This document shows positions 3,940-37,582 of a stretch of 64,000 nucleotides of DNA, piece after piece. Where the stretch lies: the NCBI GenBank assembly GCA_038727515.1, contig JAVYVS010000004.1:32001-96000 (forward strand), read 5' to 3'. The position numbers and the translations under genes were made by a program. Under the pieces are notes generated by a model, which was not told where the DNA came from, made no database searches, and saw nothing but the letters and a program-made list of their open reading frames with translations. Numbering within the stretch: the first letter of the stretch is position 1; the number at the start of each line of letters is the position of its first letter. The stretch is from Candidatus Methanomethylicia archaeon. GTDB taxonomy: Archaea; Thermoproteota; Methanomethylicia; Culexarchaeales; Culexarchaeaceae.

Positions 3940-3996
3940 TCAGTTTTACCTAAAGATAATTTCTTCTCAGGCAACTTGATATTAATCTCATTATTC

Positions 3997-4755: not shown

Positions 4756-4825
4756 TTCTAGTAAACAACTTCTCTATAGCGTGTCTTACCATGTAGAGGG
4801 TCAGTTAACATATAGAGGAATAATA

Positions 4826-6016: not shown

Positions 6017-6026
6017 CGCGAAACCG

Positions 6027-6779
6027 TCATTGCCGTTTTACCAAAGCAACGATAGTAGAGTTTAAACATCTGATGCATGGTATCTTTTCGGCTATTTCCT
6101 CGAATAACGAAGACATTTTAACCAGCCACAGAGGCAATCTCATCCTCGCTATTTTTAAGAAACGTGCAACTGGAAATGAAAGAAAAAATATCGCAAAATA
6201 TCTTTCAACCATGAACCCAGCAGAGCTTAACGCTGCCTTCAAATATCCAAAGGTAAATGTTTTTTCACCTTTCGTATGCGCCTCCATGGGGAAAAATTTT
6301 CTTCCAAGAGCGGAAATTGGATTAAGCGAGTTAGGCTCCATGAATAAGAAAATAGCCTGTGGCATAGAAGTCCTCGCAAGTTCATTCAGCGCCGAATTTA
6401 AATCGGGTAAATGATGTAATATGGATATGCCAATTACAAAATCGAATATGCCATCCTTAAACGGAAGCTTCATCACATCACACACAATGAACTCACCATC
6501 ATGACAAACAAACTTGGCAACTTTAACCAACTTTTTACTTAAATCAACTCCAACAACATCTAACCCCCAATTATAAATCAGTCGAGAAAGCCAACCTCCA
6601 CCACATCCATAATCCAAAACTAACCTCGGCTTTTCAGACTGAAGCACCTGCCTTATGATATAAATCTCTTTCCTTCTTATAACATTGGTAAAGAAAGCGT
6701 TCTCGTAACTTCCAATCTCTCCAGTAAAACAAGAAACTTCAACATTATCATAAACTTGAACCTCAGCTTTAAGGCACAT
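6027..6779 (-). CDS. Class I SAM-dependent methyltransferase
   Basis: VLDYGCGGG; GVDLS; LPFKDGIFDFVIGISILHHL; EPN. Confidence 0.88.
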   Translation of the reverse strand: MCLKAEVQVYDNVEVSCFTGEIGSYENAFFTNVIRRKEIYIIRQVLQSEKPRLVLDYGCGGGWLSRLIYNWGLDVVGVDLSKKLVKVAKFVCHDGEFIVCDVMKLPFKDGIFDFVIGISILHHLPDLNSALNELARTSMPQAIFLFMEPNSLNPISALGRKFFPMEAHTKGEKTFTFGYLKAALSSAGFMVERYFAIFFLSFPVARFLKIARMRLPLWLVKMSSLFEEIAEKIPCIRCLNSTIVALVKRQ

Positions 6780-8019
6780 TACAATACATCTTCAATCTCG
6801 ATTGCCGTTTTAATTTGGACGTAGCTTCAAGAACTTTTTTTAACTCCAAACCAACAGCTTGAACAGACAAATATTTCTCAACATAACGTCTCCCCGACAG
6901 GCCCATTCTTCTGGCAACATCAGGATTTTGCTTCAAAAACAAAACAGCTTTTGCTAATTCTTCATAGTCTCCAGGTTTAACAACGATTCCGGATTTAGTT
7001 TCCTTAATGTATTCTGCAGGCTGCCCCTTCGCACAACAGATTATAGGCTTACCTACGGCTTGATACTCATATAGTTTCGAGGATATTCCCAGGTATGGTC
7101 TTCCGAAATCTTTCAATGGTAGTAGTAGGGCGTTTGCTTGGCCTAGTAGTTCAGCCACTTCGTCTCTGCTTAAAACCTTATCGATTATCCTCACATTTTT
7201 AATGTTCATCCTCCTAATACTCTTCTTAACAGAATTCGTTAACTCCCCTGCTCCCTGAAGAATTATCTCTATGTCTTTATACTCTTCCAAGAGTTTCGCT
7301 GCCTTAATCACTTGATTGAAGTCATATGCTACTGAGAATGCTCCACTATATAGTACTACGAATTTTCCATCTTTTTCTTTTTTTACATGTATCGGTTTGA
7401 ATTTGTTAATGTCCACTCCTCCTCTAACCACATGAACTTTGCTTTTAGGAATTCTATACTTACCACAGATTACATTCACATAACCGGGACTGATGGGAGT
7501 TATGGCATCGGCCATTGTATAGGCTATTTTTGCTAGAATACTGACTAATTTGTTTACAAATCTCGATTTTATTACACCTATATCCATCGGATCTTCAGGC
7601 CACAGGTCATCTACATTAAGTACGACGGGGCATCGGTGTATCATACTATATAATAATGCCGGAATCATTACTAACACTTGGGGATTCGAGGCAAAGACTA
7701 CATCAACCTTCCTTATAATTGGTATTGGGAAAAGAGAAGAGGCTAGGAAGGATGAGAAGAGGATCATCCTATTGGCTATTCCTTTTGCAGGAAGTGGAGG
7801 TACGAATGTTCTAATGACCTTGAAATCTTCCATTGTATCTAATGATAGTGCCTTCCTCCTCAGTTTTTTTGGAACATCTCCCATCGGATAGTGTGGAAAG
7901 CCCGCTATCACTGTTACCTTTACTCCATTAAGCACGAGACCTTTAGTTATATTGTATGCTCTAGTTGAACTTCCACCTATATCTGGAGGGAAAATCTGAG
8001 AAATTATGAGAACATGCAT
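6769..8019 (-). CDS. Glycosyltransferase family 4 (WbuB-like)
   Basis: QIFPPDIGG; GFPHYP; DLWPE; SSKLYEYQAVGKPII. Confidence 0.9.
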   Translation of the reverse strand: MHVLIISQIFPPDIGGSSTRAYNITKGLVLNGVKVTVIAGFPHYPMGDVPKKLRRKALSLDTMEDFKVIRTFVPPLPAKGIANRMILFSSFLASSLFPIPIIRKVDVVFASNPQVLVMIPALLYSMIHRCPVVLNVDDLWPEDPMDIGVIKSRFVNKLVSILAKIAYTMADAITPISPGYVNVICGKYRIPKSKVHVVRGGVDINKFKPIHVKKEKDGKFVVLYSGAFSVAYDFNQVIKAAKLLEEYKDIEIILQGAGELTNSVKKSIRRMNIKNVRIIDKVLSRDEVAELLGQANALLLPLKDFGRPYLGISSKLYEYQAVGKPIICCAKGQPAEYIKETKSGIVVKPGDYEELAKAVLFLKQNPDVARRMGLSGRRYVEKYLSVQAVGLELKKVLEATSKLKRQSRLKMYCNVP

Positions 8020-9024
8020 CTAGAACCTTGCACTTTTCTCTATATTTTCCCAGTTTTCCTTGAACCATTCATATACTTTTCTTAATCCCGTTTTCATATC
8101 TGTTTTAGGTTCATATCCGAGTATTTTCCTAGCTTTCTCTATTGATGCTCTCCTTCTTATCGCCTTATCCCAGTCTCTTCTCGATTTAAATGCTATTCCA
8201 GCTTTATTACCTGTTATTTCATTGATCCAGTTTGCTAGATCTATGATTTTCGTCTCGGTCCCGGATGCAAGGTTTATTGCTTCTCCTATCGCTTCATCGA
8301 TTACTCCCATTCTCAGAGTTCCATCCACTATATCTTCTACAAATGTGAAGTCCCTTGTCTCTTCACCTGTTCCGGTTATCGGCAAAGGTTGACCGTGCAT
8401 TGCCAACCACATGAAGTTCGGTATAACATTCCTATACTTCCCCGGGACTTCTCCAGGTCCATATACATTGAAGTATCTTGCTATAGTCACTGGCATCTTG
8501 TAGTAGTCGTAGAAGTAGTTGCAATATAGTTCTCCTACGAGTTTATTTATCTGGTATGGAGTGTCTAAATGTAGTGATACAAATTCTTCTCTTAATGGTA
8601 GTGGTGCTTGACTTCCGTATACTGAGCATCCCGATGATGCATAGATGAACCTTTTGATATCCACCAAGTTTGCATATTCTAATGTCCTTAGTGTTCCTAA
8701 GGCATTTATCAATAAATCTGTTTCAGGATGCTCTACACTGTTCTGATTTGCAAAATGGGCTGCCAAGTGAAATATATAATGTGGCTTATGACTGAATGCT
8801 CTCTTCATTTTCTCTTCATCCAGAATGCTCCCCTTTATGAATATAATCCTCCCATCTCTTGGAATGTTCCATTCAAATGATGCTGAAAGGTCATCTATTA
8901 TTATGATCTTTTCTGGGTCTGCTTTTAGCAGTGTTCTTGTAAGGTTTGATCCTATGAATCCAGCTCCACCAGTAATTAGGATTCTCTTACCAGAGTAATG
9001 TTGAAGTATGTCTTCAAACCTCAT
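8020..9024 (-). CDS. NAD-dependent nucleotide-sugar epimerase/dehydratase
   Basis: ITGGAGFIGS; catalytic YQINK (YxxxK); RYFNVYGP; TRDFTFV. Confidence 0.92.
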   Translation of the reverse strand: MRFEDILQHYSGKRILITGGAGFIGSNLTRTLLKADPEKIIIIDDLSASFEWNIPRDGRIIFIKGSILDEEKMKRAFSHKPHYIFHLAAHFANQNSVEHPETDLLINALGTLRTLEYANLVDIKRFIYASSGCSVYGSQAPLPLREEFVSLHLDTPYQINKLVGELYCNYFYDYYKMPVTIARYFNVYGPGEVPGKYRNVIPNFMWLAMHGQPLPITGTGEETRDFTFVEDIVDGTLRMGVIDEAIGEAINLASGTETKIIDLANWINEITGNKAGIAFKSRRDWDKAIRRRASIEKARKILGYEPKTDMKTGLRKVYEWFKENWENIEKSARF

Positions 9025-9025
9025 T

Positions 9026-9949
9026 TTATTCCTCCTCAGTCTTATATTCCTTCTTAAACCATTCTATTGTTCTCGGTATGCCCTCTTCAGGCTTCACTGT
9101 CAACCTAAAATTTAAGTCTTTCTTCGCCTTTGATGAGTCTGGCTTTTTTATCTTTGTTGTGAAGGGTTCTGCTTCTTTGTATGTAACTTTAGAATCGTCT
9201 TTCCCAAGATACTTCAATATCAAGTCCGAGATATATTTTATTTCGTATTGTTCATCTCCGCCAAGATTATATATTTCTCCAGCCTTAAAATTATCAACTA
9301 TGTTTGCAACAGCCTTACAAACGTCATCAACATATTCGAGTGTCCTCTTATGACCCAAATACACTGTATATGGTAAATCGTGAAGTGCATGGTATATGAA
9401 CTTTGGTATAAAACCTCTATAGGGGTGATAGTGTTCACCGGGACCGTAAACATTGAACGGTCTAACTATGACGGTTTCCGTGCCGTATTGCATGGCCGAA
9501 TTCTTTATCATCATTTCACCAATCCATTTCGTCATCGCATAATCGTTCAGTAGATGTATGTGGATTTTCTCTGGGAGCTCTTCCATCATCACTCCATCAT
9601 AATCTCCATATATCTCTGCACTGCTGAAGAATATCATCTTAAACTTCCTTTTCTCCTGCATTCTTATCATGTTCTTTGTTCCAACAGCATTCGTTAGCCA
9701 AAGGTTCTCATAATAATCTTCTCCATTCCATCTTCCATACTCAGCTGCAAGGTGGTAAACATATTCGAAATCATGTTGTTCAAATATCCTCTCAATCTGC
9801 CTATACTTACTTACATCGCACCTTATGGATGTTGGATCGCTTGAATGCATTAGATCGCAGAGCCAAACTTCATGTCCACGTCTCCTCAATTCTTTAACAA
9901 GGTTTGAGCCTATGAAGCCAAGCCCACCAGTGACTAGAATCTTAGCCAA
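9026..9949 (-). CDS. NAD-dependent nucleotide-sugar epimerase/dehydratase
   Basis: VTGGLGFIGS; YAMTK; RPFNVYGPGE. Confidence 0.92.
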   Translation of the reverse strand: MAKILVTGGLGFIGSNLVKELRRRGHEVWLCDLMHSSDPTSIRCDVSKYRQIERIFEQHDFEYVYHLAAEYGRWNGEDYYENLWLTNAVGTKNMIRMQEKRKFKMIFFSSAEIYGDYDGVMMEELPEKIHIHLLNDYAMTKWIGEMMIKNSAMQYGTETVIVRPFNVYGPGEHYHPYRGFIPKFIYHALHDLPYTVYLGHKRTLEYVDDVCKAVANIVDNFKAGEIYNLGGDEQYEIKYISDLILKYLGKDDSKVTYKEAEPFTTKIKKPDSSKAKKDLNFRLTVKPEEGIPRTIEWFKKEYKTEEE

Positions 9950-9962
9950 ACAAGTTACCTCC

Positions 9963-11045
9963 TCAGGATTCCATCACTTTTATGATTATATCCACTATCC
10001 TTTCTCCAGCTCTTCCATCTCCGAATGGATTAGGCCAATCTCTCTCCCTACTCATCATAATCCTCGCCTTTTCCAATATTACCTCAGGTTCAGTTCCAGC
10101 AATAATGTTTCCACCAACCTCTATTGTTTCAGGCCTTTCAGTATTGTACCTTAATGTTACGCATGGAACCTTCAATATGCATGCTTCCTCTTGAACCCCG
10201 CCTGAATCCGTAAATATGAGCCTTGCACTTCTCTCAAGAGCTAAGAAGGTTATGTAATCTACAGGATCTATCAAGGTGATACCATTAGCATCTATATTGT
10301 ATTCATACATTCTCTTTCTAGCCCTAGGATGTATTGGATAAATGATTGGTATGTTAAAGTTCTTCTCTACAAGCTTTAAACCTTCAATTATCTTTCTAAA
10401 TCTACCTTCATTATCCACATTTTCTTGTCTATGGACTGTAACAAGAAAGTATTCCTCCCTCTTCACACCTAGATCATCCAAAATATCATTGTCATCATCT
10501 ATGAGACTGATATTCTGGTACACAGCATCAACAATCGTGTTTCCCGTAATAAAAATCTTTCCATCATCTATACCCTCCTTAAGTAAGTTTGCCTTAGCTA
10601 CTTCGGTAGGTGCAAAAAGGATGTCTGAAACATGGTCTGTGATTATCCTATTTATTTCTTCAGGCATGCTCCTATCGTAGCTTCTCAATCCAGCTTCAAC
10701 ATGACCCACCACTACTCCAATTTTAACAGCTGCCAAGGCTCCAGCAACCACAGTATTAGTATCCCCCTCAACTAGTACAATGCTCGGCTTCTCCTTCAAA
10801 AGTACTCCTTCTATTCCAATCATCATCTTCCCCGTTTCTTCAGCATGGCTTCCTGAACCAACGTTTAGATTATACTTTGGCTGCGGAAGTTTCAGTTGCT
10901 CAAAGAAAATTCGATCCATATTGTATGAGTAGTGCTGACCAGTGTGTAGTATGAAGAAGTCTATGCCCCTCCTCTCAAGCTCCCCTATTATTGGAGACAT
11001 CTTTATTATTTCGGGTCTTGTACCGAGAATTATTGTAACCTTCAT
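9963..11045 (-). CDS. wecB: UDP-N-acetylglucosamine 2-epimerase (non-hydrolysing)
   Basis: GTRPEIIK; HTGQHY; GDTNT; HVEAGLRS; PEEINR; TDSGGVQEEA; TERPE; NPFGDG. Confidence 0.96.
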   Translation of the reverse strand: MKVTIILGTRPEIIKMSPIIGELERRGIDFFILHTGQHYSYNMDRIFFEQLKLPQPKYNLNVGSGSHAEETGKMMIGIEGVLLKEKPSIVLVEGDTNTVVAGALAAVKIGVVVGHVEAGLRSYDRSMPEEINRIITDHVSDILFAPTEVAKANLLKEGIDDGKIFITGNTIVDAVYQNISLIDDDNDILDDLGVKREEYFLVTVHRQENVDNEGRFRKIIEGLKLVEKNFNIPIIYPIHPRARKRMYEYNIDANGITLIDPVDYITFLALERSARLIFTDSGGVQEEACILKVPCVTLRYNTERPETIEVGGNIIAGTEPEVILEKARIMMSRERDWPNPFGDGRAGERIVDIIIKVMES

Positions 11046-11335
11046 TTCACCTTCCTAACCCTAAATATAACTGTTCCACCATCCGTATACGGTTTCCATG
11101 GATCCACACATTGTAGATATGCATTCTCCTTATCCTCCGGTTTTGTTAATCCAAGTTTCACTGGATCTGCACCTTCATCTAGAGCTACTGCGTAATGCAA
11201 TAATACCGATAATGCATGTATGCAGAGGGCGTCTGTTCTATCCAGTAATATTCTAGGTTCATCGATAACCATCCTATCATCAACACGGTGAACTGGGCAG
11301 TATCCTCTTACCTCTACAACTTCTATTTCAAGCAT
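11042..11335 (-). CDS. TIGR04076-family small Cys-containing protein
   Basis: VVEVRGYCPVH...LCIHAL...YLQCVDP...GGTVIF pattern. Confidence 0.7.
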   Translation of the reverse strand: MLEIEVVEVRGYCPVHRVDDRMVIDEPRILLDRTDALCIHALSVLLHYAVALDEGADPVKLGLTKPEDKENAYLQCVDPWKPYTDGGTVIFRVRKVK

Positions 11336-12227
11336 ATTTTGCCTCCCTAACCAATGATACTAGTACCCATAGTATTATTGCTGTTGTCAGTAATGTGAGA
11401 CCAATCAATGTTGTAGCCATGGCTATTATTGCGATGTTAGTTGCTATCTGCCTCGTTGCGGTGAATATCTGTAGCGTCCATATCCAGAATGAGATTGCTA
11501 TCAGCATCGATATGAAACCTGGTAATCCATAGAATAGTAGTGGGCGTCTTATGGACATATACTTCACCATACTCAATACTACGCTTAAACCATGCATTAT
11601 TGGATTTTGAGTAGAAGAATCCTCATCATACCTTACCTCTACTGGTACCTCAACTATCCTTAAATCATGCTCCTTAGCCTTCATCAATATCTCGGTACTT
11701 ACTCCCATTTCGCTTTCGCTTGGATAAATTAGTTCTATGGCCCTCCTGCCATATGCTCTATATCCAGATTGAGCATCCGTTATGTTCTTGTATGAGGTTT
11801 TTTTAGCGATCTTCGTTATCATCTTTATCCCAAACTTCCTATATCTTGGAATATTACCTTTTATGCTGCCGATGAACCTCGACCCTATCACTATATCAGC
11901 CTCCTTCCTCAGTATAGGCTCGATGAGCCTTGGAATTTCGTTGGGATTATGCTGATCATCAGCATCCAACGTAACCATAACATCTGCACCAATCTCTCTA
12001 GCCTTTTCGAATAGAGTCGATAGGGCTGCACCATAACCTTGATTACGTTCATGCCTAATTACCATAGCACCAAGCTTCTTCGCAATCTCTCCAGTCATGT
12101 CATTGGAACCATCATCACAGACGATAATCTTGTCCACATATTTTTGTGTAAGCAAAACAACTCTGCCTATGGTCCTCTCCTCATTGAAGGCTGGGATGCA
12201 TGCGACAATTAACGGTCTATCTTTCAA
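11328..12227 (-). CDS. GT2 polyprenyl/dolichol-phosphate glycosyltransferase (DPM1-like) with two C-terminal TM helices
   Basis: IPAFNEE; VCDDGSND; NQGYGAA; LDADDQH; GSRF; DAQSGYRAY. Confidence 0.9.
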   Translation of the reverse strand: MKDRPLIVACIPAFNEERTIGRVVLLTQKYVDKIIVCDDGSNDMTGEIAKKLGAMVIRHERNQGYGAALSTLFEKAREIGADVMVTLDADDQHNPNEIPRLIEPILRKEADIVIGSRFIGSIKGNIPRYRKFGIKMITKIAKKTSYKNITDAQSGYRAYGRRAIELIYPSESEMGVSTEILMKAKEHDLRIVEVPVEVRYDEDSSTQNPIMHGLSVVLSMVKYMSIRRPLLFYGLPGFISMLIAISFWIWTLQIFTATRQIATNIAIIAMATTLIGLTLLTTAIILWVLVSLVREAKYA

Positions 12228-12310
12228 CCTTCTCCACTAATCGAAGTCAATAACAGTAAACACAAAACCTTTCATATTCATTTACCGACGTATTTGTACA
12301 ACTCTAGGGT

Positions 12311-12703
12311 TCATATAGTTATATTAACCTTCATGTATGGTGGATTGTTTATTTCCATAAACCCAATATATAATATGTAATTTTTATCCATAATCCAGTT
12401 TAATAGTTTTGGGAATAATTTTAAGATTGTATGGTTGGTTAAGAGTTTGCGGACTTTCTCGAAACCAGTTTTTAAAGCTTCCCTTTTCGGAGTGGATTTC
12501 AATTTTTCAATAATGGGTGTCAAAATTTTTAAGACTTCTAAACTTTTTATCTTGCCCGCAAACCTACAGTAAATCATGCAAACCCTATAGAAAGCTTTCT
12601 CATACATATCCAATTTACATATGTTACTATTCCTATGGGCTTTAACCCATAGGTTCTTCAAATCTTCATAGTATACTGGTTCAATAAAATTATCAGCGGA
12701 CAT
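12311..12703 (-). CDS. Hypothetical protein
   Basis: 130-aa ORF with ATG start and plausible composition; no recognised motif. Confidence 0.6.
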   Translation of the reverse strand: MSADNFIEPVYYEDLKNLWVKAHRNSNICKLDMYEKAFYRVCMIYCRFAGKIKSLEVLKILTPIIEKLKSTPKREALKTGFEKVRKLLTNHTILKLFPKLLNWIMDKNYILYIGFMEINNPPYMKVNITI

Positions 12704-25174: not shown

Positions 25175-26371
25175 TTACGGTAATATTATCTTACCCATTA
25201 CAACTCTTTCTAATGCTCCAGTGGCTGAAGGAACATTATTTGGAAATCCACTTATAGTTTCATTTGCCAGTATGATCATTACAAGTGGTTCTTTTGCTTG
25301 TGATGGTATTCCATAATCTTCATGTAAGCTAATCTTTGTTTTTGGATTTAATTCTTTAATCATCTCCATTAAAACTCTATTTCTACTTCCACCTCCACCA
25401 ATTATGATTTCATCTGGTTTTTCCGGTAGGTATTTAATGTAGCTTTCAGTTATGGTTTTCGCCGTATAATATGTTGCTGTTGCAATTATATCTTCCCATT
25501 TCAAATTCATTTCTCTAGCTTTTCCAATAATCTTCTTAACATATGATTCTCCAAATTCTTCTCTACCGGTGGTTTTTGGAGGTTTCTTCTTTAGATATGG
25601 ATGTTTCATCATGTAATTCAGCAATACCTCATTCACTTTCCCCTTTGCTGCTATTTCTCCATTTAAATCCATGTTGAGTTTTCCATGACTCATCTCTCTA
25701 ACTATTGCATCTATTATCATGTTTCCAGGTCCTGTATCGAAGGCTATTACATCCTTTATCTCTGCATTCCTTGGTATATATGTTACATTGGCTATTCCAC
25801 CAATATTTTGAATAGCTCTACAAATATCTATGCTTCTAAATATTATGTAATCTGCATATGCACTTATTGGTGCTCCATTACCACCTGCAGCTACATCTTT
25901 ATGTCTGAAATCAGCTATGGTAATGATCTTTGTTTTATAAGCTATTATTGATGGTTCTCCTATTTGTAGTGTTGATCTAGTTTTATACCCATATATATCT
26001 TCAATCTTTGGATTATGGTATATGGTCTGCCCATGACTTGCTATAAAATCCACATCCCCCCTACTTAAACCAACTTCATCCATTGCTTCCAAAGCTTTCT
26101 CTGCAAATATCATTCCTAAAACATAATTTAATTGGCATATCCTCTTTACATTTCCAGTTTTTGGATTTGTTGATTTCAATATTAATCTACGAATTTCATT
26201 ATCATATTCAAATGTCTTATGGTATAGTATTTTGAATTTTGTATTTATCCAATTACCCTTTAATTTAGCTATTACTATTGATACTCCATCTAATGATGTT
26301 CCAGACATTATTCCTAAACCTATCTTTTCCTCCTTTGATTTCAATTCAAATAATTTCTCTATGGGGTTCAA
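25175..26371 (-). CDS. anmK: Anhydro-N-acetylmuramic acid kinase
   Basis: GIMSGTSLDG; SHGQTIYH; TLQIG; DFRHKDVAAGGNGAP; NIGGIANVT; FDTGPGNMIID; PKTTGREEFG; GGGSRN; AKE. Confidence 0.95.
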   Translation of the reverse strand: MNPIEKLFELKSKEEKIGLGIMSGTSLDGVSIVIAKLKGNWINTKFKILYHKTFEYDNEIRRLILKSTNPKTGNVKRICQLNYVLGMIFAEKALEAMDEVGLSRGDVDFIASHGQTIYHNPKIEDIYGYKTRSTLQIGEPSIIAYKTKIITIADFRHKDVAAGGNGAPISAYADYIIFRSIDICRAIQNIGGIANVTYIPRNAEIKDVIAFDTGPGNMIIDAIVREMSHGKLNMDLNGEIAAKGKVNEVLLNYMMKHPYLKKKPPKTTGREEFGESYVKKIIGKAREMNLKWEDIIATATYYTAKTITESYIKYLPEKPDEIIIGGGGSRNRVLMEMIKELNPKTKISLHEDYGIPSQAKEPLVMIILANETISGFPNNVPSATGALERVVMGKIILP

Positions 26372-26423
26372 TTTATCTTCAATTCACTACTTATCTCACT
26401 TTACATTTAATCCTTCCCTAAAT

Positions 26424-26822
26424 TTATTCTACTTTTACTTCTCTTCCAATCTTTTTCTTTCGTAATTCTATGGTTAGTAATCCTTCAAAATACTTTGCTT
26501 TTGCACTTTCTGGTTCTACTGGATCTTCCAATTTAATCTTATACTTATACTCTTCTTTTCTCCCTACTATTTCAACTGATGTTTTAGCTGATATGCTTAT
26601 TGCATTCTCATTTACATATAGTTTTATATCTTCCTTCTTTACCCCTGGAAGTTCTACTGTCACTATATATTTATCATCTTCCTCTTTTATCTGATATCTT
26701 TCTGATATTACTCCGTGTTTATATGCTTTCATCTTTATTATTGGTAGTGGTATGTTTAATCCTCCAATTATCATTTTAATTTCCTTTTCCACTTTTCTAT
26801 TATCGTTACACATTTGTACCAC
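26424..26822 (-). CDS. Hsp20/alpha-crystallin family protein
   Basis: VELPGVKKEDIKL; AKAKYFEGLLTIEL; C-terminal VKVE. Confidence 0.88.
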   Translation of the reverse strand: MVQMCNDNRKVEKEIKMIIGGLNIPLPIIKMKAYKHGVISERYQIKEEDDKYIVTVELPGVKKEDIKLYVNENAISISAKTSVEIVGRKEEYKYKIKLEDPVEPESAKAKYFEGLLTIELRKKKIGREVKVE

Positions 26823-26867
26823 AATTAAATTTTAGTCTATTTTTGTATTTAAATTTTATTTTTGTAC

Positions 26868-27320
26868 TTATTCTATGGAAACTTTCCTCCAACCTTTAAG
26901 TTTCTCTTCCACTATCTTCATTTCTCCCTCTAGGAATTTCTTATATTCTTCTAGTTCTTCTACATCTTCTAGTTCTCTTGCTATGCTCATGTATTTCTCT
27001 GCTTCTCTAATTGATTTCTCCATTATGAATGATATATATTTCATTATTGATTTTATTTTTGGCTGTATTAGTTTTGGTATTTTATCTATTGCTTCAAATC
27101 CCTTATCAGTTAATTTTACACTACCATCAATTTCAAATTCTATATATCCCTTATCTCTAAGTTCTGAGAGTGATGTGTAGAAAGAGCTTTTTGATTCCAA
27201 TCCAAATTCATACATTTCTCTAAGTAGTTTTGCAGTCTTCTTTCCTCCACTTTTAAGTTTTAGTAGTATTGCTATTTGATGTGGATTTAATTTATCTTCT
27301 CCTACTTTAATTTTAAACAT
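26868..27320 (-). CDS. Winged-helix transcriptional regulator with C-terminal coiled coil
   Basis: SFYTSLSELRDKGYI...LTDKG. Confidence 0.75.
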   Translation of the reverse strand: MFKIKVGEDKLNPHQIAILLKLKSGGKKTAKLLREMYEFGLESKSSFYTSLSELRDKGYIEFEIDGSVKLTDKGFEAIDKIPKLIQPKIKSIMKYISFIMEKSIREAEKYMSIARELEDVEELEEYKKFLEGEMKIVEEKLKGWRKVSIE

Positions 27321-27326
27321 TCTTCT

Positions 27327-28043
27327 TCACTCTACTGTAAAGTATATTCTCCTTTTATCTTTCCCCTTATTTTGAACTTTTATCAATTTTACTTCTCCTA
27401 CTTCCATGGTATTCTTTACATGTGGTCCACCATCTGCTTGTACATCTAATCCCTCTATTTCCACTATTCTAAGTTCTTCTAATTCTGGTGGCATTCTTTC
27501 AGCTAATTTTACTATTCCAGGTATTTTTAATGCTTCCTCTCTTTTTAGGAAGTATATTTTTACTGGTAGTGCCATTTTAACTGCTTCATTAACTTTTCGA
27601 ATAGCATCTTCAAATATCTCTTTACTCATTGATGGTATATTAAAATCCATTTTCGCTTCATCTTCATCCACTTGTCCACCTGTTACAAGAGCATTATAAT
27701 GATTATACATTACTGCTACTAGTATGTGTGCTGCAGTATGTAGTCTCATTAATCTATATCTTCTCTCCCAATTTATTTCACCCTCCACTTCAATTCCAAT
27801 TTCAACTTTTGGTTCTATGTTTAATACATGTATTATATCTGCAGTGGTATGATCTAATTTTACATCTTGAACTTCATATTCTAATCCCATTATCCTAATT
27901 TTGCCAGTATCATTGGCTACTCCTCCAGTTTGTGGATGGAATATTGTTTGATCTAAAATCAATTCTCTACCATTACAGGCGAGAACTTTAGCTTTAAAAG
28001 TTTTTTGATAACTATCGTATTGATATAAGTGTTTTGTTGGCAT
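27327..28043 (-). CDS. alaX: AlaX-M trans-editing alanyl-tRNA deacylase
   Basis: LDQTIFHPQTGG; MRLHTAAH; DGGPHV (Cys replaced by Asp, as in AlaX-M). Start placed at ATG 28043 (MPTKHLY) behind a GGTGA RBS; the ORF track extends to 28097. Confidence 0.9.
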   Translation of the reverse strand: MPTKHLYQYDSYQKTFKAKVLACNGRELILDQTIFHPQTGGVANDTGKIRIMGLEYEVQDVKLDHTTADIIHVLNIEPKVEIGIEVEGEINWERRYRLMRLHTAAHILVAVMYNHYNALVTGGQVDEDEAKMDFNIPSMSKEIFEDAIRKVNEAVKMALPVKIYFLKREEALKIPGIVKLAERMPPELEELRIVEIEGLDVQADGGPHVKNTMEVGEVKLIKVQNKGKDKRRIYFTVE

Positions 28044-28140
28044 TTTAATCACCATTAAATCTTCTATACATGTTTTTAAGGGTTTCCATAATACCATAAA
28101 TTTTTAGGTGTATTTATTAAATATTTGTTGGTGTTTAACT

Positions 28141-29688
28141 TTGGATTTGGATTTATTGGCTGGTCAAATGATTATGATGGGTTTTGATGGTTTAGAGCTT
28201 AATTCTGAAATTATGGATGCTTTAAAGAGGATTAAACCTTGTGGTTTAGTCTTTTTCAGAAGGAATATGGCTAATTGGAATCAAGTTAAGAAGCTTATAA
28301 GAGATTTACAAAATTATGCTTCTAGCATTGGACTTCCACCATTAATTATTGCTTTAGATCATGAGGGTGGACCAGTATTTAGGATGGCTAGTCGTTTAAC
28401 CCCTCTTCCCAGCGCTATGGCTTTAGGTGCATCCAATGATCCATCTATGGTTGATTGTATAGCTAGAATTGCAGGTCAAGAACTTAAAGCTTTAGGATTT
28501 AATTTGAATTTTGCTCCTGTAGCTGATCTCAATACTAATCCAAGGAATCCAGTTATAGGTATTAGATCTTTCGGGGATGATCCATTTAAAGTTGCTAATA
28601 TGGTTTCCAGATATGTTTCATCTCTTCAATCTACTGGTGTTATGGCTACTGCTAAACATTTTCCAGGTCATGGTGATACATCTGTAGATTCCCATTTAGA
28701 TCTTCCTATTGTAGATGTTGATTTAAATGTTTTATTGAATAGAGAGCTTATACCATTTAAAGCTGCTATTGATGCTGGTGTTTCATGTATAATGACTTCC
28801 CATGTATGTTTCCCAAGGGTTGATTCTTCGAATCTTCCAGCAACATTCTCTAAATATCTCTTAAGGGATGTTTTAAGGGGTATGCTTGGTTTTAATGGTG
28901 TAATAATTTCTGATGCTCTTGAAATGAAGGCTATTAGCAGTAGATTTGATGTTGATGATGTAGCTCTTTATGGTTTAAATGCTGGTTTAAATATTCTACT
29001 TAGGGGTGGAGATTTAAATTATATTTTTGATTTAAAGGATTCAATTTTAAAACTCGTTAAGAGTGGAGGGGTAGATCCAAAACTATTATATGATTCCTAT
29101 ATTAGGATTGAAGCCCTTAGGAATAAGATTAATTCTTATTCATCTCCCATTGAAGTTTCAATTAAAAATTTGAGGAAGAATAGAATGCTTTCCATGGATG
29201 TTTCTCTATCCTCCATAACCATTTTGAAAAGTGATTTATTTAGACCATTAAAGGGTTATAATTCTATTGCCATCCTCATTCCAAGGATGCTTCAACGTTT
29301 CTTATCTAATTTTAGTTCTGAAGTTGTCAATTTATTTGTTGGTGAATTTGGGAGTTACATTGATACTTTGGTTATATCATTTTATGATGAAGATGTAAAC
29401 TTTGATGATTTAATGGATATTGTTTATAATGTGGATGGTGTTGTCTTCTTCACTTATAATGCAATTTTCCATAGGTTTCAATTGGATTTATATGAGAAGA
29501 TTAAAGATAGGGTTTTAATGGTTGTTGCAGCAGGTTCACCTTATGATGCTGAATTAATTGATGGAGATAAACCTATAGCTTTAACCTATGGATTAAATCC
29601 AATAGTCTTATCTGCTCTTGTAGATGTTTTATGTGGTGTTTGTGAAGCTCATGGTATTCTTCCAGTTAAATTGAATTTGAAAAGCTAG
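28141..29688 (+). CDS. nagZ: GH3 beta-N-acetylglucosaminidase NagZ (two-domain, no signal peptide)
   Basis: DHEGG; NFAPVAD; IGIRSFG; NagZ signature KHFPGHGDTSVDSH (Asp-His dyad); nucleophile ISDALEM. Likely TTG start at 28141 (ORF open from 28108). Confidence 0.93.
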   Translation: MDLDLLAGQMIMMGFDGLELNSEIMDALKRIKPCGLVFFRRNMANWNQVKKLIRDLQNYASSIGLPPLIIALDHEGGPVFRMASRLTPLPSAMALGASNDPSMVDCIARIAGQELKALGFNLNFAPVADLNTNPRNPVIGIRSFGDDPFKVANMVSRYVSSLQSTGVMATAKHFPGHGDTSVDSHLDLPIVDVDLNVLLNRELIPFKAAIDAGVSCIMTSHVCFPRVDSSNLPATFSKYLLRDVLRGMLGFNGVIISDALEMKAISSRFDVDDVALYGLNAGLNILLRGGDLNYIFDLKDSILKLVKSGGVDPKLLYDSYIRIEALRNKINSYSSPIEVSIKNLRKNRMLSMDVSLSSITILKSDLFRPLKGYNSIAILIPRMLQRFLSNFSSEVVNLFVGEFGSYIDTLVISFYDEDVNFDDLMDIVYNVDGVVFFTYNAIFHRFQLDLYEKIKDRVLMVVAAGSPYDAELIDGDKPIALTYGLNPIVLSALVDVLCGVCEAHGILPVKLNLKS

Positions 29689-30836
29689 TATATGTGGTAT
29701 TTTTCCTTTTCATAAGCATATTTCAATAATTCTTCTTCTACTTCATCTACTATTGCCCATGGGTCTTCATCTTCATCTATTGATCTTCTAATTTTACTTG
29801 TTCCCGTTAAGATATCCATCCAATATTTCCCCTTAACCTTCCTCCATTGGAATTTCTCTGGGTATAGTCTTTTTATTGTACTTATTATTTGTAGTCCAGT
29901 TAGGAATGGTCTGAATAATCCCCTATCCATCACATATATTTCTACTCCTCCACATAATTTCCCTCTATATTTACCGCTATTTGGTTTGAATGTTAATGGT
30001 CTAAATTTAACTCCACTTAATCCAGTTTTATTTAGTTCTTCTGATAGTTTCTTTGGTTTTATCCATGGTGCTCCAATTACTTGGAATGGTTTTGTAGTTC
30101 CCCTCCCCTCAGATATGTTTGTAGCTTCAATTAAACATGTTCCAATGTATACATGTGCTGTTTCTGGTGTTGGCATATTTGGTGATGGTGGAATCCATGG
30201 TAATCCAGTTTGATCAAACCATAAGCTTCTACTCCAACCCTCCATGGATACAACTCTTAAATCAGCTTTTAAATGGTATTTCTCATTTAGATATGTAGCT
30301 ATTTCCCCTATGGTTAATCCATATCTAACTGGTATTTCAGCTATTCCAACGAAAGATCTATATTCTCCCTCTAGTATTGGTCCCTCTAATATTTCTCCTG
30401 TTATTGGGTTTGGTCTATCTAATACTATAATTTTCAATTCATTTTCTCCACATGCTTCTAAACAGTAGTAGAGGGTTGAGATATATGTATACCATCTTGC
30501 ACCTACATCTTGTAAATCAAATACTAGTGCTTCTAAATCCTCCATATCTTCTCTTCTTGGTTTATAGTTTAATCCATATAGGCTTTTTATTTCAACTTTA
30601 TACTCTTCGTCATAATATGATGTGGTTATAGGTTTTGTTTCTGTAATTGTAAATCCATGTTCAGGGGTGAATACCCTTTTAACTTGGCATTTCCCAATTC
30701 TCCTTGCTTCATCTATTATATGTGTGAATTGTGGAGTTACACTTGATTGATTTGCCACTATCCCTATACTTCTACCTCTTAAATCTCCAAAATCTTCTTC
30801 TATTAATATTTCCAATCCAATTTTCACTCTATCCAA
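29685..30836 (-). CDS. namZ: Exo-beta-N-acetylmuramidase NamZ (DUF1343/GH171)
   Basis: PEHGF; SLYG; FDLQDVGARWYTYIST; LDRPNP; RYGLTIGE; WIPPSPNMPT; EATNISEGRGTTKPFQVIGAPW. Confidence 0.94.
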   Translation of the reverse strand: MDRVKIGLEILIEEDFGDLRGRSIGIVANQSSVTPQFTHIIDEARRIGKCQVKRVFTPEHGFTITETKPITTSYYDEEYKVEIKSLYGLNYKPRREDMEDLEALVFDLQDVGARWYTYISTLYYCLEACGENELKIIVLDRPNPITGEILEGPILEGEYRSFVGIAEIPVRYGLTIGEIATYLNEKYHLKADLRVVSMEGWSRSLWFDQTGLPWIPPSPNMPTPETAHVYIGTCLIEATNISEGRGTTKPFQVIGAPWIKPKKLSEELNKTGLSGVKFRPLTFKPNSGKYRGKLCGGVEIYVMDRGLFRPFLTGLQIISTIKRLYPEKFQWRKVKGKYWMDILTGTSKIRRSIDEDEDPWAIVDEVEEELLKYAYEKEKYHIY

Positions 30837-31770
30837 TTTTCTTCACCTTTGCTATTTCTATAGCTTTTAATGGTATTCCACCAGCTTCTTCCAAGAGTTT
30901 TTCAGCTTCTTCTTTGCTTAAGTTTGTTTTAGCCATTATTATTGCTAATATAACATTACCATTTGCTTCCAATAATTTTTCTTCAGCTTCTTCATATGAT
31001 ACTCCTGCTTCCTCCATTATTATCCTTTTAGCTCTTTCCCTAAGTTTATCGCTTACTGGAGTTAGATTTATCATATGTCCACTTTTTACTCTACCAAGTT
31101 TTATCATAGCTGTAGTACTCATCATTGTTAATATAACCTTTTGTGCTGTTGCTGCCTTCATCCTTGTTGATCCAGTTATAACTTCTGGCCCTGTTTCTGG
31201 TGCTATTACTATATCTGCATATTTTGTTATTTCACCCTTCCGATTACTTGTTATTGCTATTGTTTTTGCACCTATACTTTTTGCATATTTTAATGCTGAT
31301 ATTACGAAGGGTGTTCTTCCACTAGCACTTATACCCACAATTACATCTCCACTTTTAATCCTCCTAGCTTTTAATTCTCTTATTGCTGTTTCTTCATCAT
31401 CTTCAGCTCCTTCTATTGGTCTAAATATTGCTCCAGGTCCTCCTGCAATTATTGCTTCCACAGTTTCTGGTCCAATATTGAAGGTTGGTAGTAGTTCTGC
31501 TGCATCCATTACTGCCAATCTACCGCTTGTTCCAGCTCCAATATATATCATCTTCCCCCCATTGGATATGGCTTCAACTATTAATTCTACTGCTTTACAT
31601 ATATTCTCCAATTCTCTTCCCACAGCTTCCACAGCCTTTTTATCTTCTTCATTTATTATGCGTAGTATCTCTATTGTTGGCATATTCTCTATATCTTGTA
31701 TACCCTTAATTTTTGATTCTGTAGGTGTTTCCTCTAATTCTTTAAATATCTTTAATCTATCTTTATACAT
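30829..31770 (-). CDS. murQ: N-acetylmuramic acid 6-phosphate etherase
   Basis: GAGTSGRLAVMDAAELLPTF; IAGG; EGAEDD; GISASGRTPFV; GPEVITGSTRMKAATAQK. Both catalytic Glu motifs are present. Confidence 0.96.
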   Translation of the reverse strand: MYKDRLKIFKELEETPTESKIKGIQDIENMPTIEILRIINEEDKKAVEAVGRELENICKAVELIVEAISNGGKMIYIGAGTSGRLAVMDAAELLPTFNIGPETVEAIIAGGPGAIFRPIEGAEDDEETAIRELKARRIKSGDVIVGISASGRTPFVISALKYAKSIGAKTIAITSNRKGEITKYADIVIAPETGPEVITGSTRMKAATAQKVILTMMSTTAMIKLGRVKSGHMINLTPVSDKLRERAKRIIMEEAGVSYEEAEEKLLEANGNVILAIIMAKTNLSKEEAEKLLEEAGGIPLKAIEIAKVKKIG

Positions 31771-32719
31771 ATGCCCATTCCTCTATGTTTCTTATGATTT
31801 CATTGTTTATTTCTATTCCCATTTCCCTTAATCCCATTAATATTGTTCCAGCTATCCCTCTATATTTACACTTTACAACTTCTACTTCTGGGTATTCTCC
31901 CTCTAATTCTTTCTTTATCTTTTCCAATAATCTCTTGGATGTTTTAAATAATCCTCCAAAACATTGTACTTCACACTTCCCATATCCACTTTTCCTTATC
32001 ACTATTTTCACGATTTTAGCTAATTCTCTTCCAGCTTCATCTATTATCTCTATTGCTTCTTCATCTCCTTCTTCACATGCTTCCGCTATTTCTTCAGCTA
32101 TTTTAGCTATTTCGCTTATCCCTCTTTGACCATATATTCTTTCTATTATTTGCGTTGGTGATGTTACTTTATATAATTCCATTATCCTCTTGGATAATGG
32201 TGTTTGTGGGATTTCTTCATCATATCTTCTAAACATTTTGTTTAAAGCCTTTTTAGCTATCCAAAATCCGCTTCCTTCATCTCCAATTAAATATCCCCAT
32301 CCTCCAGCTCTAATCTTTCTTCCATCTACTTCTGTGTATGCTATTGATCCTGTTCCACATATTAATACTATTACATTTCCCCTATGTTTTACTGTTTCAT
32401 ATGCTATTTTTGCGTCTGATACTATTATTACCCTTTTCGAATATTTATTGTCTATTAGCTTAATTATTTCTTCTCTATTCCTTTCATTTTCTAATCCTGC
32501 TGCTCCTATTACGCATAATTCTGCTTTTCCATTTATTTTCACATTTTCTAAACTTTCCAATAGATTTCTTGTTGCTTCTTCTAATCCTACACTATTTATG
32601 TTTATGCTTCCTGAAACATGTCTTTTTATTATTTTCCCATTTACCCATGTTGATACAGCTTCAGTTTTACTTCCTCCACCATCAATTCCAATTATATATT
32701 GTTTTTCCAATTTACTCAT
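31763..32719 (-). CDS. BadF/BadG/BcrA/BcrD-family sugar kinase, MurNAc/GlcNAc kinase (MurK-like)
   Basis: IGIDGGGSKT; VSDA; ICGTGSIAY; RAGGWGYLIGDEGSGFWIA; overlaps murQ in an operon. Confidence 0.88.
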   Translation of the reverse strand: MSKLEKQYIIGIDGGGSKTEAVSTWVNGKIIKRHVSGSININSVGLEEATRNLLESLENVKINGKAELCVIGAAGLENERNREEIIKLIDNKYSKRVIIVSDAKIAYETVKHRGNVIVLICGTGSIAYTEVDGRKIRAGGWGYLIGDEGSGFWIAKKALNKMFRRYDEEIPQTPLSKRIMELYKVTSPTQIIERIYGQRGISEIAKIAEEIAEACEEGDEEAIEIIDEAGRELAKIVKIVIRKSGYGKCEVQCFGGLFKTSKRLLEKIKKELEGEYPEVEVVKCKYRGIAGTILMGLREMGIEINNEIIRNIEEWAYV

Positions 32720-33514: not shown

Positions 33515-34918
33515 TTGGTTAAGTATGATTTAATTTTGAAGGGTGGATTTGTAGTTGATCCTAAGAATGGATTAGAGGATTATATGGATATTGCTATTTC
33601 CAATGGTAAAATAGCTGAATTGAGTGATGATATTGATATTAGGAGTGGACGTGAAGTTATAGATGTTTCTGATAGAATAGTGTTTCCAGGGGTTATAGAT
33701 TCACATACTCATATTGGAAGGTTTGGACATAAGATGATGGCTAAAGTTGGAGTTATAACTGCTGTAGATATGTCTGCATCCATGGATACATTGATATCGA
33801 ATTTAAAGGTTTATGGTGCTGGATTAAATGTTGCAACGGTTACAAATATTAGGAATTATTATCCAAAGGCTTCTGAAATTCTTAGTGATTCTGAGATTAA
33901 AGAAGCTGTTGGGAAAGCTTTATGTGAAGGTGCTCTTGGTATAAAGATTGCTGGTGGTCATAATCCATTTACCCCTGAAACTACTGCTAGAATTATTGAT
34001 GAATGTAATAGAGCTGGATGTTATATTGCTTTTCATGTTGGTACCACTAAGACTGGAAGTGATTTAAATGGTTTTCTTGAAGCTTTAGATCTTGCTGGAG
34101 ATAATGGTTTACATATAGCTCATGTTAATAGTTATTGTAGAGGTTTAATTGAAGATCCAGTTTATGAAGCTTTGAAAGCTATTTCAGCTTTAAAGGGTAA
34201 AAGGAGAATTGCTTCAGAATCATATTTAGCTTTAATTAATGGTACTAGTGGTAGATGTGTAAATAATGTTCCTGTTAGTCGTGTTACTAGGAATTGTCTT
34301 AGGATGAAGGGTTATAGTGAAGATTTTGAAGGTTTAAAGAAGGCTATAATGGATGGATATTGTTATGTTAGAGTGGAGGCTGGGGGTGAATCTATACTTG
34401 TAACTGGGGATGAAGGGGTTAAGTATTGGTTGGAGGCTGGAACTGATATTGGTGTAAGCTTTCCAGTTAATGATCCTGAAGCTCAAATAGTTTTAGCTAC
34501 AGCTAGAGATGGTGATAGATTTATTGTAGATGCAATTAGTACTGATGGTGGTGATATACCTAGAAATGTGCAAGTTGAATATGGTATGCTCTTAGTTAAA
34601 CTTGGAGCTTTAAGTTTAAAGGATCTTGCTATTAAATTATCTCTTAATCCAGCTATGATGTTTGGTTTTAAAGATAAGGGGCATTTGGGTGTTGGTGCAG
34701 ATGCAGATATAACTGTTATTGACCCATTTATTGGAAGTGCATGTATGGGTATTTCTGGTGGTAGAATTATTATGGTTGATGGAGTTGCAATTGTCTCTGG
34801 TGGCAGGGTTATAACTACAGAGTATGGTTTAGAATATGTGAAGCGTAGTGGAGTGGAATATTTGATTGCAGATTTATCTAAGGCTAAGATTTATTCCGGT
34901 GAGATATATGGTAGTTAA
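33515..34918 (+). CDS. Metal-dependent amidohydrolase (N-acyl-D-amino-acid deacylase/dihydroorotase-like)
   Basis: PGVIDSHTH; AFH; HIAH; STDGG; NPA...KGHLGVGADADITVID. Confidence 0.8.
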   Translation: MVKYDLILKGGFVVDPKNGLEDYMDIAISNGKIAELSDDIDIRSGREVIDVSDRIVFPGVIDSHTHIGRFGHKMMAKVGVITAVDMSASMDTLISNLKVYGAGLNVATVTNIRNYYPKASEILSDSEIKEAVGKALCEGALGIKIAGGHNPFTPETTARIIDECNRAGCYIAFHVGTTKTGSDLNGFLEALDLAGDNGLHIAHVNSYCRGLIEDPVYEALKAISALKGKRRIASESYLALINGTSGRCVNNVPVSRVTRNCLRMKGYSEDFEGLKKAIMDGYCYVRVEAGGESILVTGDEGVKYWLEAGTDIGVSFPVNDPEAQIVLATARDGDRFIVDAISTDGGDIPRNVQVEYGMLLVKLGALSLKDLAIKLSLNPAMMFGFKDKGHLGVGADADITVIDPFIGSACMGISGGRIIMVDGVAIVSGGRVITTEYGLEYVKRSGVEYLIADLSKAKIYSGEIYGS

Positions 34919-35379: not shown

Positions 35380-35455
35380 AGCCGGGTGGTGTAGCGGCCA
35401 AGCATGGCGGGCTCTGGCCCCGTCGACGGGAGTTCGAATCTCCCCCCGGCTACCA
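35380..35455 (+). tRNA. tRNA-Gln(CUG), intronless, CCA encoded
   Basis: Acceptor stem AGCCGGG/CCCGGCT with A1-U72; anticodon arm GCGGG-CT-CTG-GC-CCCGT (CTG at 35414-35416); T arm GGGAG-TTCGAAT-CTCCC; ends ACCA. Confidence 0.96.
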
Positions 35456-36193: not shown

Positions 36194-37582
36194 TCATAGA
36201 CTTCTAATTTTGTGTAGTCTATTTCTCTCCATGTATAAATCTATTTTACCATCTCTTGTAATTGTGAATTCCACTGGTTGTCTAACTCCATTAGACCATA
36301 TATAGAATCTTAAATCCTCTAAATTATCATTTTCCGGTATTAATGGCATTGAAACATCTATGAATTCATCTTTTTGCTCTATATATAGCATTCCACCCTT
36401 ATTAACTACGTTTACCCTTATTACTCCCCCATACCCCTCATATACTCCAGTTAACATATCTAGATTCTTCTGTATCTTTAATGCTGGCACTTCATTTATG
36501 CTTCTCCCCATAATTAATGCTAGAATTGTATGTGCAATTGTTGTATGTGGGAATCCTGTTGTATTTGAAGCCATTACTATTCCAATCTTTTCCATTGGTA
36601 TGAATGCTACATATGCTGTTGAACATCCAGTTGATCCACTATGCGCCACCAATTTTCTTTCAAAGAAGTCTTCTATTATACCCCATCCATAACCATATCC
36701 TTCTCTACCATAATATGTCCTCGGCCTCTCTATGTGTATCTTCTGCATTTCCATTATGTTCTCTGGTTTTGCCAATTCTATATCTCCAAATCTTCCATTA
36801 TTCATTGAAGCTATTATGTATCTTGAGAATCCCATAACTGAACTTATCAATCCACCTGCAGCATGAATTAATTTGTCAAAGGGCATTCTAACTTTTATTG
36901 GTTTTCCATCTCTACTCTTCCAGTATGGTGTTATCTTATCTGGGTCTTTCTCAAAATCTTCCTTTAAAAATGTACTTCTATCCATTTTTAATGGTGTTAA
37001 TATGTTCCTCTTAATATATTCATGGTATTCCATTCCACTCAACTTCTCAATTATATCTCCAAGTATAGTGTATCCAGCGTTTAAATAGAAGTATCTTTCA
37101 CCTGGATCTGCAACTACTTCTTCTTGAGCATTATTTATGAATCTATAGAAATCCTCCATACTACTCATAGGTATAAATATATCCTTTATTCCAGTTGCCC
37201 TCCTCAAACTTATTACTGCTGTGTTTAACGATGGTACTCCAGATGAATGTGAAAGTAAATGCTTTATCCTTATAGGTTTATCTGGTCTTCCAATTTTTAT
37301 TGGAGCATACTTATTCACTGGATCTTCTAAATCTATCTTCCCCTTCTCCATCAACTGTATTATTGCAAGTGCAGTCATAGATTTTGTACATGATCCAAAT
37401 CCATATAATGTATTTATTGTTGCAGGTTTATTTTCTTCTATATCCCTTGAACCAAAGGCATCTGCATATATAACTTCTTCTCCCTTAACTATTGCTATAC
37501 TTAATCCCGGTGTTTTCGTTTTCTCCATTATTACTGGTATTTCTTTATCTATATACTCCCTTATTCTCTCTATCTTATTCAT
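36194..37582 (-). CDS. Serine hydrolase, beta-lactamase/PBP-like family S12 (Pab87/AmiE-like)
   Basis: PGLSIAIV; SxxK = GSCTK; LLSHSSG; YxN = YLN; AAGGL; HSG; extra C-terminal beta domain; no signal peptide. Confidence 0.9.
   Translation of the reverse strand: MNKIERIREYIDKEIPVIMEKTKTPGLSIAIVKGEEVIYADAFGSRDIEENKPATINTLYGFGSCTKSMTALAIIQLMEKGKIDLEDPVNKYAPIKIGRPDKPIRIKHLLSHSSGVPSLNTAVISLRRATGIKDIFIPMSSMEDFYRFINNAQEEVVADPGERYFYLNAGYTILGDIIEKLSGMEYHEYIKRNILTPLKMDRSTFLKEDFEKDPDKITPYWKSRDGKPIKVRMPFDKLIHAAGGLISSVMGFSRYIIASMNNGRFGDIELAKPENIMEMQKIHIERPRTYYGREGYGYGWGIIEDFFERKLVAHSGSTGCSTAYVAFIPMEKIGIVMASNTTGFPHTTIAHTILALIMGRSINEVPALKIQKNLDMLTGVYEGYGGVIRVNVVNKGGMLYIEQKDEFIDVSMPLIPENDNLEDLRFYIWSNGVRQPVEFTITRDGKIDLYMERNRLHKIRSL

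Follow-up and report, generated by a model that had tools for sequence, protein, structure and literature searches.

Genes for a probable salvage pathway of bacterial cell-wall fragments in the archaeal order Culexarchaeales

Peptidoglycan (murein) makes up a major part of microbial necromass, and gene systems acting on its fragments have been described in Escherichia coli (AmpG-NagZ-AmpD-AnmK-MurQ-NagA recycling), in Clostridium acetobutylicum (the MurK route; for MurK, PMC10465942) and in Bacillus subtilis (the murQ-murR-murP-amiE-nagZ-namZ, or ybb, operon; PMC8054146); the paper on NamZ names bacterial taxa only. Beyond bacteria, a gene set of anaerobic APM ciliates has been interpreted as serving the use of bacterial walls (PMC13198582). 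A 2025 paper on archaeal hydrolases mentions neither MurQ nor recycling and leaves open whether archaea scavenge peptidoglycan as food (PMC12352652), and the description of the Culexarchaeia does not mention peptidoglycan or muramic acid in the text and supplements examined (PMC9723716). Here, we analyzed a 64,000-nucleotide (nt) stretch of the genome of a Candidatus Methanomethylicia archaeon of the order Culexarchaeales (assembly GCA_038727515.1, contig JAVYVS010000004.1, positions 32,001 to 96,000; hereafter the window), which carries genes for AnmK, NagZ, NamZ, MurQ and a MurK-like kinase within 7.5 kb. We consider it quite likely that this gene set serves the import and cytoplasmic salvage of soluble bacterial wall fragments, and that it is old and vertically inherited.

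All five genes are open reading frames uninterrupted by stops, with their diagnostic motifs intact, as had been claimed in an initial annotation of the window (Table 1). Family calls were made with Pfam and NCBIfam profile models and their curated cut-offs, and the nearest solved structures were ranked by bit score. The enzyme identities first proposed held for AnmK, NagZ, NamZ and MurQ, all over curated cut-offs, whereas the kinase can be called only MurK-like. In MurQ, Glu92 and Glu123 sit in the two catalytic motifs, 31 residues apart, the same distance as between E83 and E114 of E. coli MurQ, and the enzyme is predicted to convert N-acetylmuramic acid 6-phosphate (MurNAc-6P) to N-acetylglucosamine 6-phosphate (GlcNAc-6P) and D-lactate. 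NamZ has both its N- and its C-terminal domain, with Glu59 (in PEHG) and Arg245 (in EGRGT) spaced as Glu92 and Arg279 of the B. subtilis enzyme; its solved relative is a GH171-type protein, and exo-beta-N-acetylmuramidase activity is predicted. NagZ carries the KHFPGHGxxxxDxH motif with the Asp-His dyad and the SDxLxM motif with the Asp nucleophile, and its top solved match is a GH3 N-acetylglucosaminidase (6k5j, 280 bits). The catalytic motifs of AnmK are complete (SGTSLDG, HGQT, DFR, NIGGIAN and DTGPGN), and the predicted reaction takes 1,6-anhydro-MurNAc, ATP and water to MurNAc-6P. The MurK-like kinase has as its top solved match a MurNAc/GlcNAc kinase (8zo3, 125 bits, against 108 bits for a Sulfolobus hexokinase); in all members of the order a Ser, not a His, precedes its catalytic Asp (Asp102), a small residue that would favour admission of the lactyl ether. 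It is predicted to phosphorylate MurNAc and GlcNAc to their 6-phosphates, with MurNAc specificity likely.

Hydropathy revealed no signal peptide or membrane segment in any of the five proteins, which places them in the cytoplasm. The kinase gene and murQ, and murQ and namZ, overlap by 8 nt when the longest starts are assumed, in agreement with the overlapping murK-murQ-namZ operon of the initial annotation. The convergent nagZ and namZ overlap by 4 nt. While nagZ and anmK do both belong to the cluster, as first described, they lie 1.7 kb apart with three genes between them.

Table 1. Predicted genes of the cluster, its surroundings and associated loci (positions within the window unless a contig of the host genome, G000, is named; x > y, score over curated cut-off)
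Feature (predicted product)	Position	Strand	Profile matches and remarks
anmK, anhydro-MurNAc kinase, 398 aa	25175..26371	-	PF03702 322 bits; NF007148 460 > 387; NF007142 441 > 435
nagZ, GH3 exo-beta-N-acetylglucosaminidase, 515 aa, no signal peptide	28141..29688	+	PF00933; NF003740 216 > 207
namZ, GH171 exo-beta-N-acetylmuramidase, 380-383 aa, no signal peptide	29685..30836	-	PF07075 253 bits; PF20732 182 bits
murQ, MurNAc-6P etherase, 313 aa	30829..31770	-	TIGR00274 330 > 302; solved MurQ ~262 bits
murK-like BadF-family sugar kinase, 318 aa	31763..32719	-	PF01869; below NagK cut-off
hsp20, 150-aa unknown, alaXM	26424..28097	-	NF040865 (AlaXM) over cut-off; outside the pathway
467-aa amidohydrolase, substrate unassigned	33515..34918	+	PF01979/PF07969; below cut-off of the NCBIfam models listed
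tRNA-Gln(CTG)	35380-35455		
Pab87-type serine peptidase (beta-lactamase superfamily, like AmiE)	36194..37582	-	PF00144; PF13969
NagB-PIG-L fusion (PRK02122), 624 aa	G000 C1:146737-148611 (L235:6738-8612)	-	NF002557 596 > 384; TIGR00502 291 > 237
dapF	G000 C1:200652-201515 (L297:8653-9516)	+	lone gene
dppA-lysA	G000 C1:550566-552693 (L268:9567-11694)	-	dppA directly upstream of lysA

The host genome did not yield murA, murB, murC-F, murG, ddl, ftsI or ftsW when searched with E. coli queries. The single match in this search, a MraY-like protein, is most likely to be the archaeal GlcNAc-1-P transferase. With no genes for murein synthesis detected, the MurNAc substrates must be of foreign origin, as the initial annotation had reasoned, and the system is not one of self-recycling. 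Downstream of MurQ, the probable next step is a NagB-PIG-L fusion protein, with the PIG-L half a putative deacetylase; its HPDD and DPHGTH motifs are intact, and canonical NagA and a GlmD-type deaminase were not detected in this genome. The fusion is confined to two families of the order (f1 and f2); G005 has a second, degenerate copy. GlmS, GlmM and GlmU are present, as are AglB and a GlcD-type FAD dehydrogenase that is a candidate for D-lactate oxidation.

A second line of evidence comes from the peptide part of the wall. Diaminopimelate derives almost only from murein or its biosynthesis. LysA occurs in 11 and DapF in nine of the 12 genomes of the order, with dppA directly upstream of lysA in 7/11; among 49 other members of the class we found no DapF and only weak LysA-like matches in two. 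Six-frame searches did not find lysC, asd, dapB or dapD, with positive controls that worked for lysC and dapB and none for asd and dapD, and a DapA-family protein is present at a borderline score. Given the near-specificity of diaminopimelate for murein, the orphan DapF and LysA are a second, independent sign of wall salvage, and together with DppA they point to a route from diaminopimelate to lysine. As no aspartokinase was found, Thr and Met synthesis may likewise be closed to the host. A LysW route to lysine was not supported: the sole RimK-family match adjoins mch, fits best as MptN and falls below the LysX cut-off (other LysW genes were not searched). Further peptide enzymes are an Asp/Glu racemase, an S58 (DmpA-type) peptidase and two Pab87-type peptidases. 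A stretch at ~220-229 kb of host contig C2 (L301:6183-14842) encodes a D-cysteine-desulfhydrase family protein, two amidohydrolases, a class III PLP enzyme and the S58 (DmpA-type) peptidase, probably a D-amino-acid enzyme cluster; in G007 and G009, dapF lies next to homologues of three of these genes. G009 also has a 7.3-kb dapA-dapB-lysC-lysA-dapF operon (contig C10, L298) with 44% GC against 41% at other G009 loci, which is either a second acquisition or bin contamination.

The initial annotation spoke of one archaeon; we found instead that the trait extends across the order. AnmK is carried by 11 of 12 Culexarchaeales genomes and MurQ, NagZ and NamZ by 10 each. The gaps are bins that are 45% and 57% complete, NagZ being additionally missing from one 90% bin, and full-length MurQ was found in none of 29 other Methanomethylicia genomes. 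The cluster is conserved in three families, and its genes stay together while their neighbours change: in G007 anmK abuts nagZ, in G008 the kinase gene, murQ, namZ and anmK are all co-directional, and in G009 and G010 nagZ and anmK are separated by an AmiE/PBP4B-like gene, with a gene for an M29-like aminopeptidase farther on. Between congeneric genomes the cluster genes have dN/dS values of 0.08-0.16. The order is monophyletic in trees of MurQ (96), AnmK (99) and NamZ (100/100), and family f1 forms one clade in all three, nested among other archaeal sequences. Together, conservation across the order and monophyly in three trees indicate that the cluster is old and was inherited vertically from the ancestor of the order. 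The phylogenies did not identify a bacterial donor, the other point on which the initial annotation had looked to them: which named bacteria come closest depends on the gene (Planctomycetota and Thermoanaerobacterium for AnmK; WOR-3, Poribacteria and Armatimonadota for NamZ). Archaeal NamZ sequences occupy several places in the free tree, and a single archaeal clade was not rejected (p-AU 0.398).

We also surveyed 401 Thermoproteota genomes, in which related genomes count separately and are not independent. MurQ was found in 33, AnmK in 32, NamZ in 40 and all three in 25; NamZ accompanies MurQ in 33/33 genomes and AnmK in 31/32. In all, ~10% of the sampled Thermoproteota have MurQ, NamZ or AnmK, in a patchy distribution, and named carriers include Bathyarchaeia, Thermofilum sp. 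ex4484_79 and Thermoproteales bins. The kinase gene adjoins murQ or namZ in most archaeal clusters, and the recurring neighbourhood of murQ, kinase gene and namZ often includes amiE, a PIG-L deacetylase gene and a tandem GNAT gene. An AmiE-like gene lies within many archaeal clusters besides those of G009 and G010, and in two Thermoproteota lysA is next to the cluster. In G117 namZ and amiE are split, and G053 has three namZ copies. Genome CP000852.1 (G091), which we take to be that of Caldivirga maquilingensis, has namZ, anmK and an amiE-like gene; MurQ was not found there. A PRK02947 SIS-domain gene directly precedes its namZ (L223:7832-9750 region) and could encode an alternative etherase.

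From these genes we propose a route in which activities are assigned by family, and in which uptake, amidase cleavage and the ecological origin of the fragments are inferred. Soluble fragments from neighbouring bacteria, released by turnover or in lysates cut by bacterial or phage enzymes, would enter through a transporter. NagZ and NamZ would alternately free GlcNAc and MurNAc or anhydro-MurNAc, AnmK and the MurK-like kinase would yield MurNAc-6P and GlcNAc-6P, and MurQ would split MurNAc-6P into GlcNAc-6P and D-lactate. The NagB-PIG-L fusion would then turn GlcNAc-6P into fructose-6P, ammonia and acetate, or GlmM and GlmU might direct it to UDP-GlcNAc for surface glycans, while D-lactate would pass to the GlcD-type dehydrogenase. 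DppA, along with other D-specific peptidases, could open the stem peptides, and diaminopimelate would be converted to lysine by DapF and LysA.

Several points weigh against this route. The activities are predictions from sequence, and the deacetylase role of the PIG-L half is putative. The host genome is 93.6% complete. AmpG, MurP/NagE phosphotransferase systems (PTS), SBP_bac_5 and a Chlorobi-type symporter were not found in it, nor were AmiE, Amidase_2 or Amidase_3. The NamZ of B. subtilis probably requires peptide-free MurNAc, which gives weight to the failure to find these amidases. The marine family showed no NagA and no NagB with the queries used, and no PIG-L in two members tested. Lastly, the solved structures closest to the window AnmK are two levoglucosan kinases (250 and 222 bits, with AnmK at 200).

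L-Ala-D/L-Glu epimerase was likewise not detected in this genome. Five lytic families were not found in it (GH24, GH25, GH73 and wall-binding domains were not searched); SLT was found in none of the 12 genomes of the order, and NlpC/P60 and M23 in none of the five searched. With no endo-acting lytic family among the five, the simplest reading is that the cells take up fragments which bacterial or phage enzymes have cut beforehand. One transporter candidate is an MFS gene that adjoins the cluster in G006 and G011 and has a homologue of 33-36% identity in the host. Four-gene DUF6754 membrane modules without an ATPase are a possible second; the host has several copies (L297:9543-12568, converging on dapF; contig C1 at 158-161 and 631-634 kb). 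Amidase_2 genes with a stop or split occur in G003 (C3) and G007 (C6), and an Amidase_3 match lies on a 2-kb contig (G003:C40).

Within the salvage reading, the products might serve mainly as building blocks, UDP-GlcNAc for S-layer N-glycans and lysine, and yield little energy. The Culexarchaeia lack phosphofructokinase (PMC9723716), so building-block use may outweigh energy use; GlmM and GlmU score over their cut-offs and are accompanied by AglB and the MraY-like transferase. Moreover, the cluster is retained in the marine family, where no NagB was found, and the NagB-PIG-L copy of G006 has an internal stop. However, the fusion, catabolic by family, is intact in the host and its family, D-lactate and peptides are fermentable by routes described for the group, and GlmS makes salvage unnecessary for UDP-GlcNAc. 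We regard the anabolic variant as a serious contender that falls somewhat short of an even chance.

Another explanation is that the cluster is a repurposed relic whose enzymes have different sugars as substrates, for instance levoglucosan in the case of the AnmK family, and chitin or the GlcNAc of archaeal N-glycans in that of NagZ, the kinase and NagB. This would agree with the structural matches of AnmK, with the nearness of the kinase to a broad-range Sulfolobus hexokinase, and with NagZ and NagB not being specific to murein. Moreover, the second pocket position of the kinase is a Glu, and an acid there is said to repel the lactyl group (PMC10465942); yet the solved MurK is acidic at this position too. 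Although its top solved match is a levoglucosan kinase, the window AnmK is AnmK-like in its DFR motif region and gene context: it reads DFRHKDVAAGG, as bacterial AnmK does, where levoglucosan kinase has DFRISDQAAGR. DapF, LysA and DppA independently indicate murein peptides, and MurQ is invariably accompanied by NamZ. These two enzymes are not known to have substrates besides MurNAc compounds (in part, PMC8054146). We therefore think it improbable that other sugars are the true substrates.

The initial annotation had proposed feeding on wall fragments by scavenging, predation or symbiosis. Salvage is supported by the downstream and peptide genes, but predation is disfavoured. A life as predator or antagonist, lysing live bacteria to consume their walls, would have parallels in some archaea that secrete bactericidal peptidoglycan hydrolases (PMC12352652), and the broken Amidase_2 genes of G003 and G007 could be read in its favour. 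However, none of the five enzymes has a signal peptide and no endo-acting lytic enzyme or host amidase was found in the searches described above, which makes this scenario very improbable.

Weakest of all is assembly chimerism or bacterial contamination, which the bacterial type of the genes and the contamination estimate of this metagenome-assembled genome (MAG; 1.59 Mb, 12 contigs, ~33% GC, 2.9% contamination) might suggest, and which we reject with near certainty: depth is even over the locus, single contigs join archaeal and cluster genes in runs from three studies (possibly including the source), a 726-kb contig repeats the gene order, a 1.58-Mb contig (GCA_038879675.1) shows anmK beside the same neighbours, synteny is order-wide, codon usage and GC3 of the cluster are native to the host, and the nearest homologues are archaeal. 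The coverage and junction concerns raised in the initial annotation were thus allayed. The runs that cover the window well are hot-spring metagenomes, and the closest named relatives by NamZ identity are Ca. Culexarchaeum nevadense (70%) and Ca. Culexmicrobium thermophilum (63%). In the single RNA run, X19, low-depth contigs cover parts of nagZ, namZ and the kinase gene; contigs do not demonstrate transcription and may stem from DNA carry-over, and we do not count them as evidence of expression. One of its low-depth contigs (window 30177-32685) fuses a kinase piece to a namZ piece in the wrong order, which probably reflects an artefact of the library or the assembly.

The archaeal genes between anmK and nagZ show the native integration of the cluster, and the embedding among archaeal genes described initially was confirmed for AlaX-M, Hsp20, PDO (TIGR02187) and tRNA-Gln(CTG), the tRNA being the sole RNA match in an Rfam scan. 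The hsp20-unknown-alaXM arrangement is shared with G001, G004, G005 and G006 and absent from the cluster in G007-G011; G003 alone adds two genes (864 aa with an ATP-cone-like start; 182 aa) between anmK and hsp20 (L093:8677-11886). The 467-aa amidohydrolase, which adjoins the cluster only in families f1 and f2, is by position a weak candidate for a deacylase. The Pab87-type peptidase, which adjoins the cluster in G003 and G004, shares only ~30% identity with the true AmiE-like protein found in G009 and is an unproven candidate for cleaving stem peptides or D-amino acids. At 834-12700 the window has a surface-glycan region with GC up to 40% against 33%, including genes for a UDP-GlcNAc 2-epimerase and a GT2, and STT3/AglB lies at its end (61228-63243); these genes are possible sinks for salvaged GlcNAc.

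Taken together, the salvage reading describes an intracellular route that is near-complete for the sugars as well as the peptides of the wall, order-wide and patchy in about a tenth of the sampled Thermoproteota. More tentatively, and in our view rather doubtful, wall debris could have been a main growth resource of Culexarchaeales and several Thermoproteota lineages since the ancestor of the order, giving amino sugar, D-lactate, ammonia and lysine. If true, there would be a cross-domain nutritional dependence, with diaminopimelate as the source of the lysine that these cells cannot make, and muropeptides could be a selective substrate for cultivating these archaea. Whether archaea use peptidoglycan as food has become testable, with five soluble and predictedly thermostable enzymes for which assays are established, a cultured relative (Caldivirga maquilingensis) that has part of the set, and an enrichment substrate for an uncultured order.

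Compared with known systems, the locus shares with E. coli recycling a cytoplasmic NagZ and the passage from AnmK through MurQ to GlcNAc-6P and D-lactate, but AmpG, an AmpD-type amidase, NagA, LdcA, YcjG and MppA were not found here, and a NagB-PIG-L fusion stands in place of NagA and NagB. In C. acetobutylicum the MurK cluster includes NagZ, AmiE and GlmA. As in that route, a BadF-type MurNAc/GlcNAc kinase occurs with MurQ (MurK: PMC10465942), and other archaeal clusters carry a tandem GNAT gene (GlmA-like by domain layout) and a PIG-L deacetylase gene; the archaeal set differs in adding AnmK and NamZ, and no GNAT was found in this genome. The likeness to Bacillus drawn in the initial annotation fits the enzyme set: as in the ybb operon, exo-digestion by NagZ and NamZ feeds MurQ, NamZ travels with MurQ, and an AmiE-like gene sits inside the cluster in G009, G010 and other archaea (PMC8054146). 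Unlike there, NagZ and NamZ are not secreted, the MurP PTS, MurR and AmiE were not found in this genome, ATP-dependent kinases (AnmK and the MurK-like enzyme) carry out the phosphorylation, and the host is an archaeon without detected murein synthesis. The archaeal hydrolases Woldo and Danwoldo show that archaea encode murein-directed enzymes; those are secreted, modular, endo-acting killers, whereas here cytoplasmic exo-enzymes are joined to catabolic steps (PMC12352652). The APM ciliates, hosts without murein as well, have laterally acquired nearly the same set (NamZ, anmK, murQ, nagB-PIG-L and pbp4b); they are phagotrophic eukaryotes, and the archaeon differs in its clustered genes and its diaminopimelate-to-lysine arm (PMC13198582). 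The literature searched, which left out most subscription papers, held no description of an archaeal MurQ/NamZ/AnmK pathway. The enzyme families are thus known, their assembly into a pathway in archaea is apparently undescribed, and the nearest precedent is that of the anaerobic ciliates.

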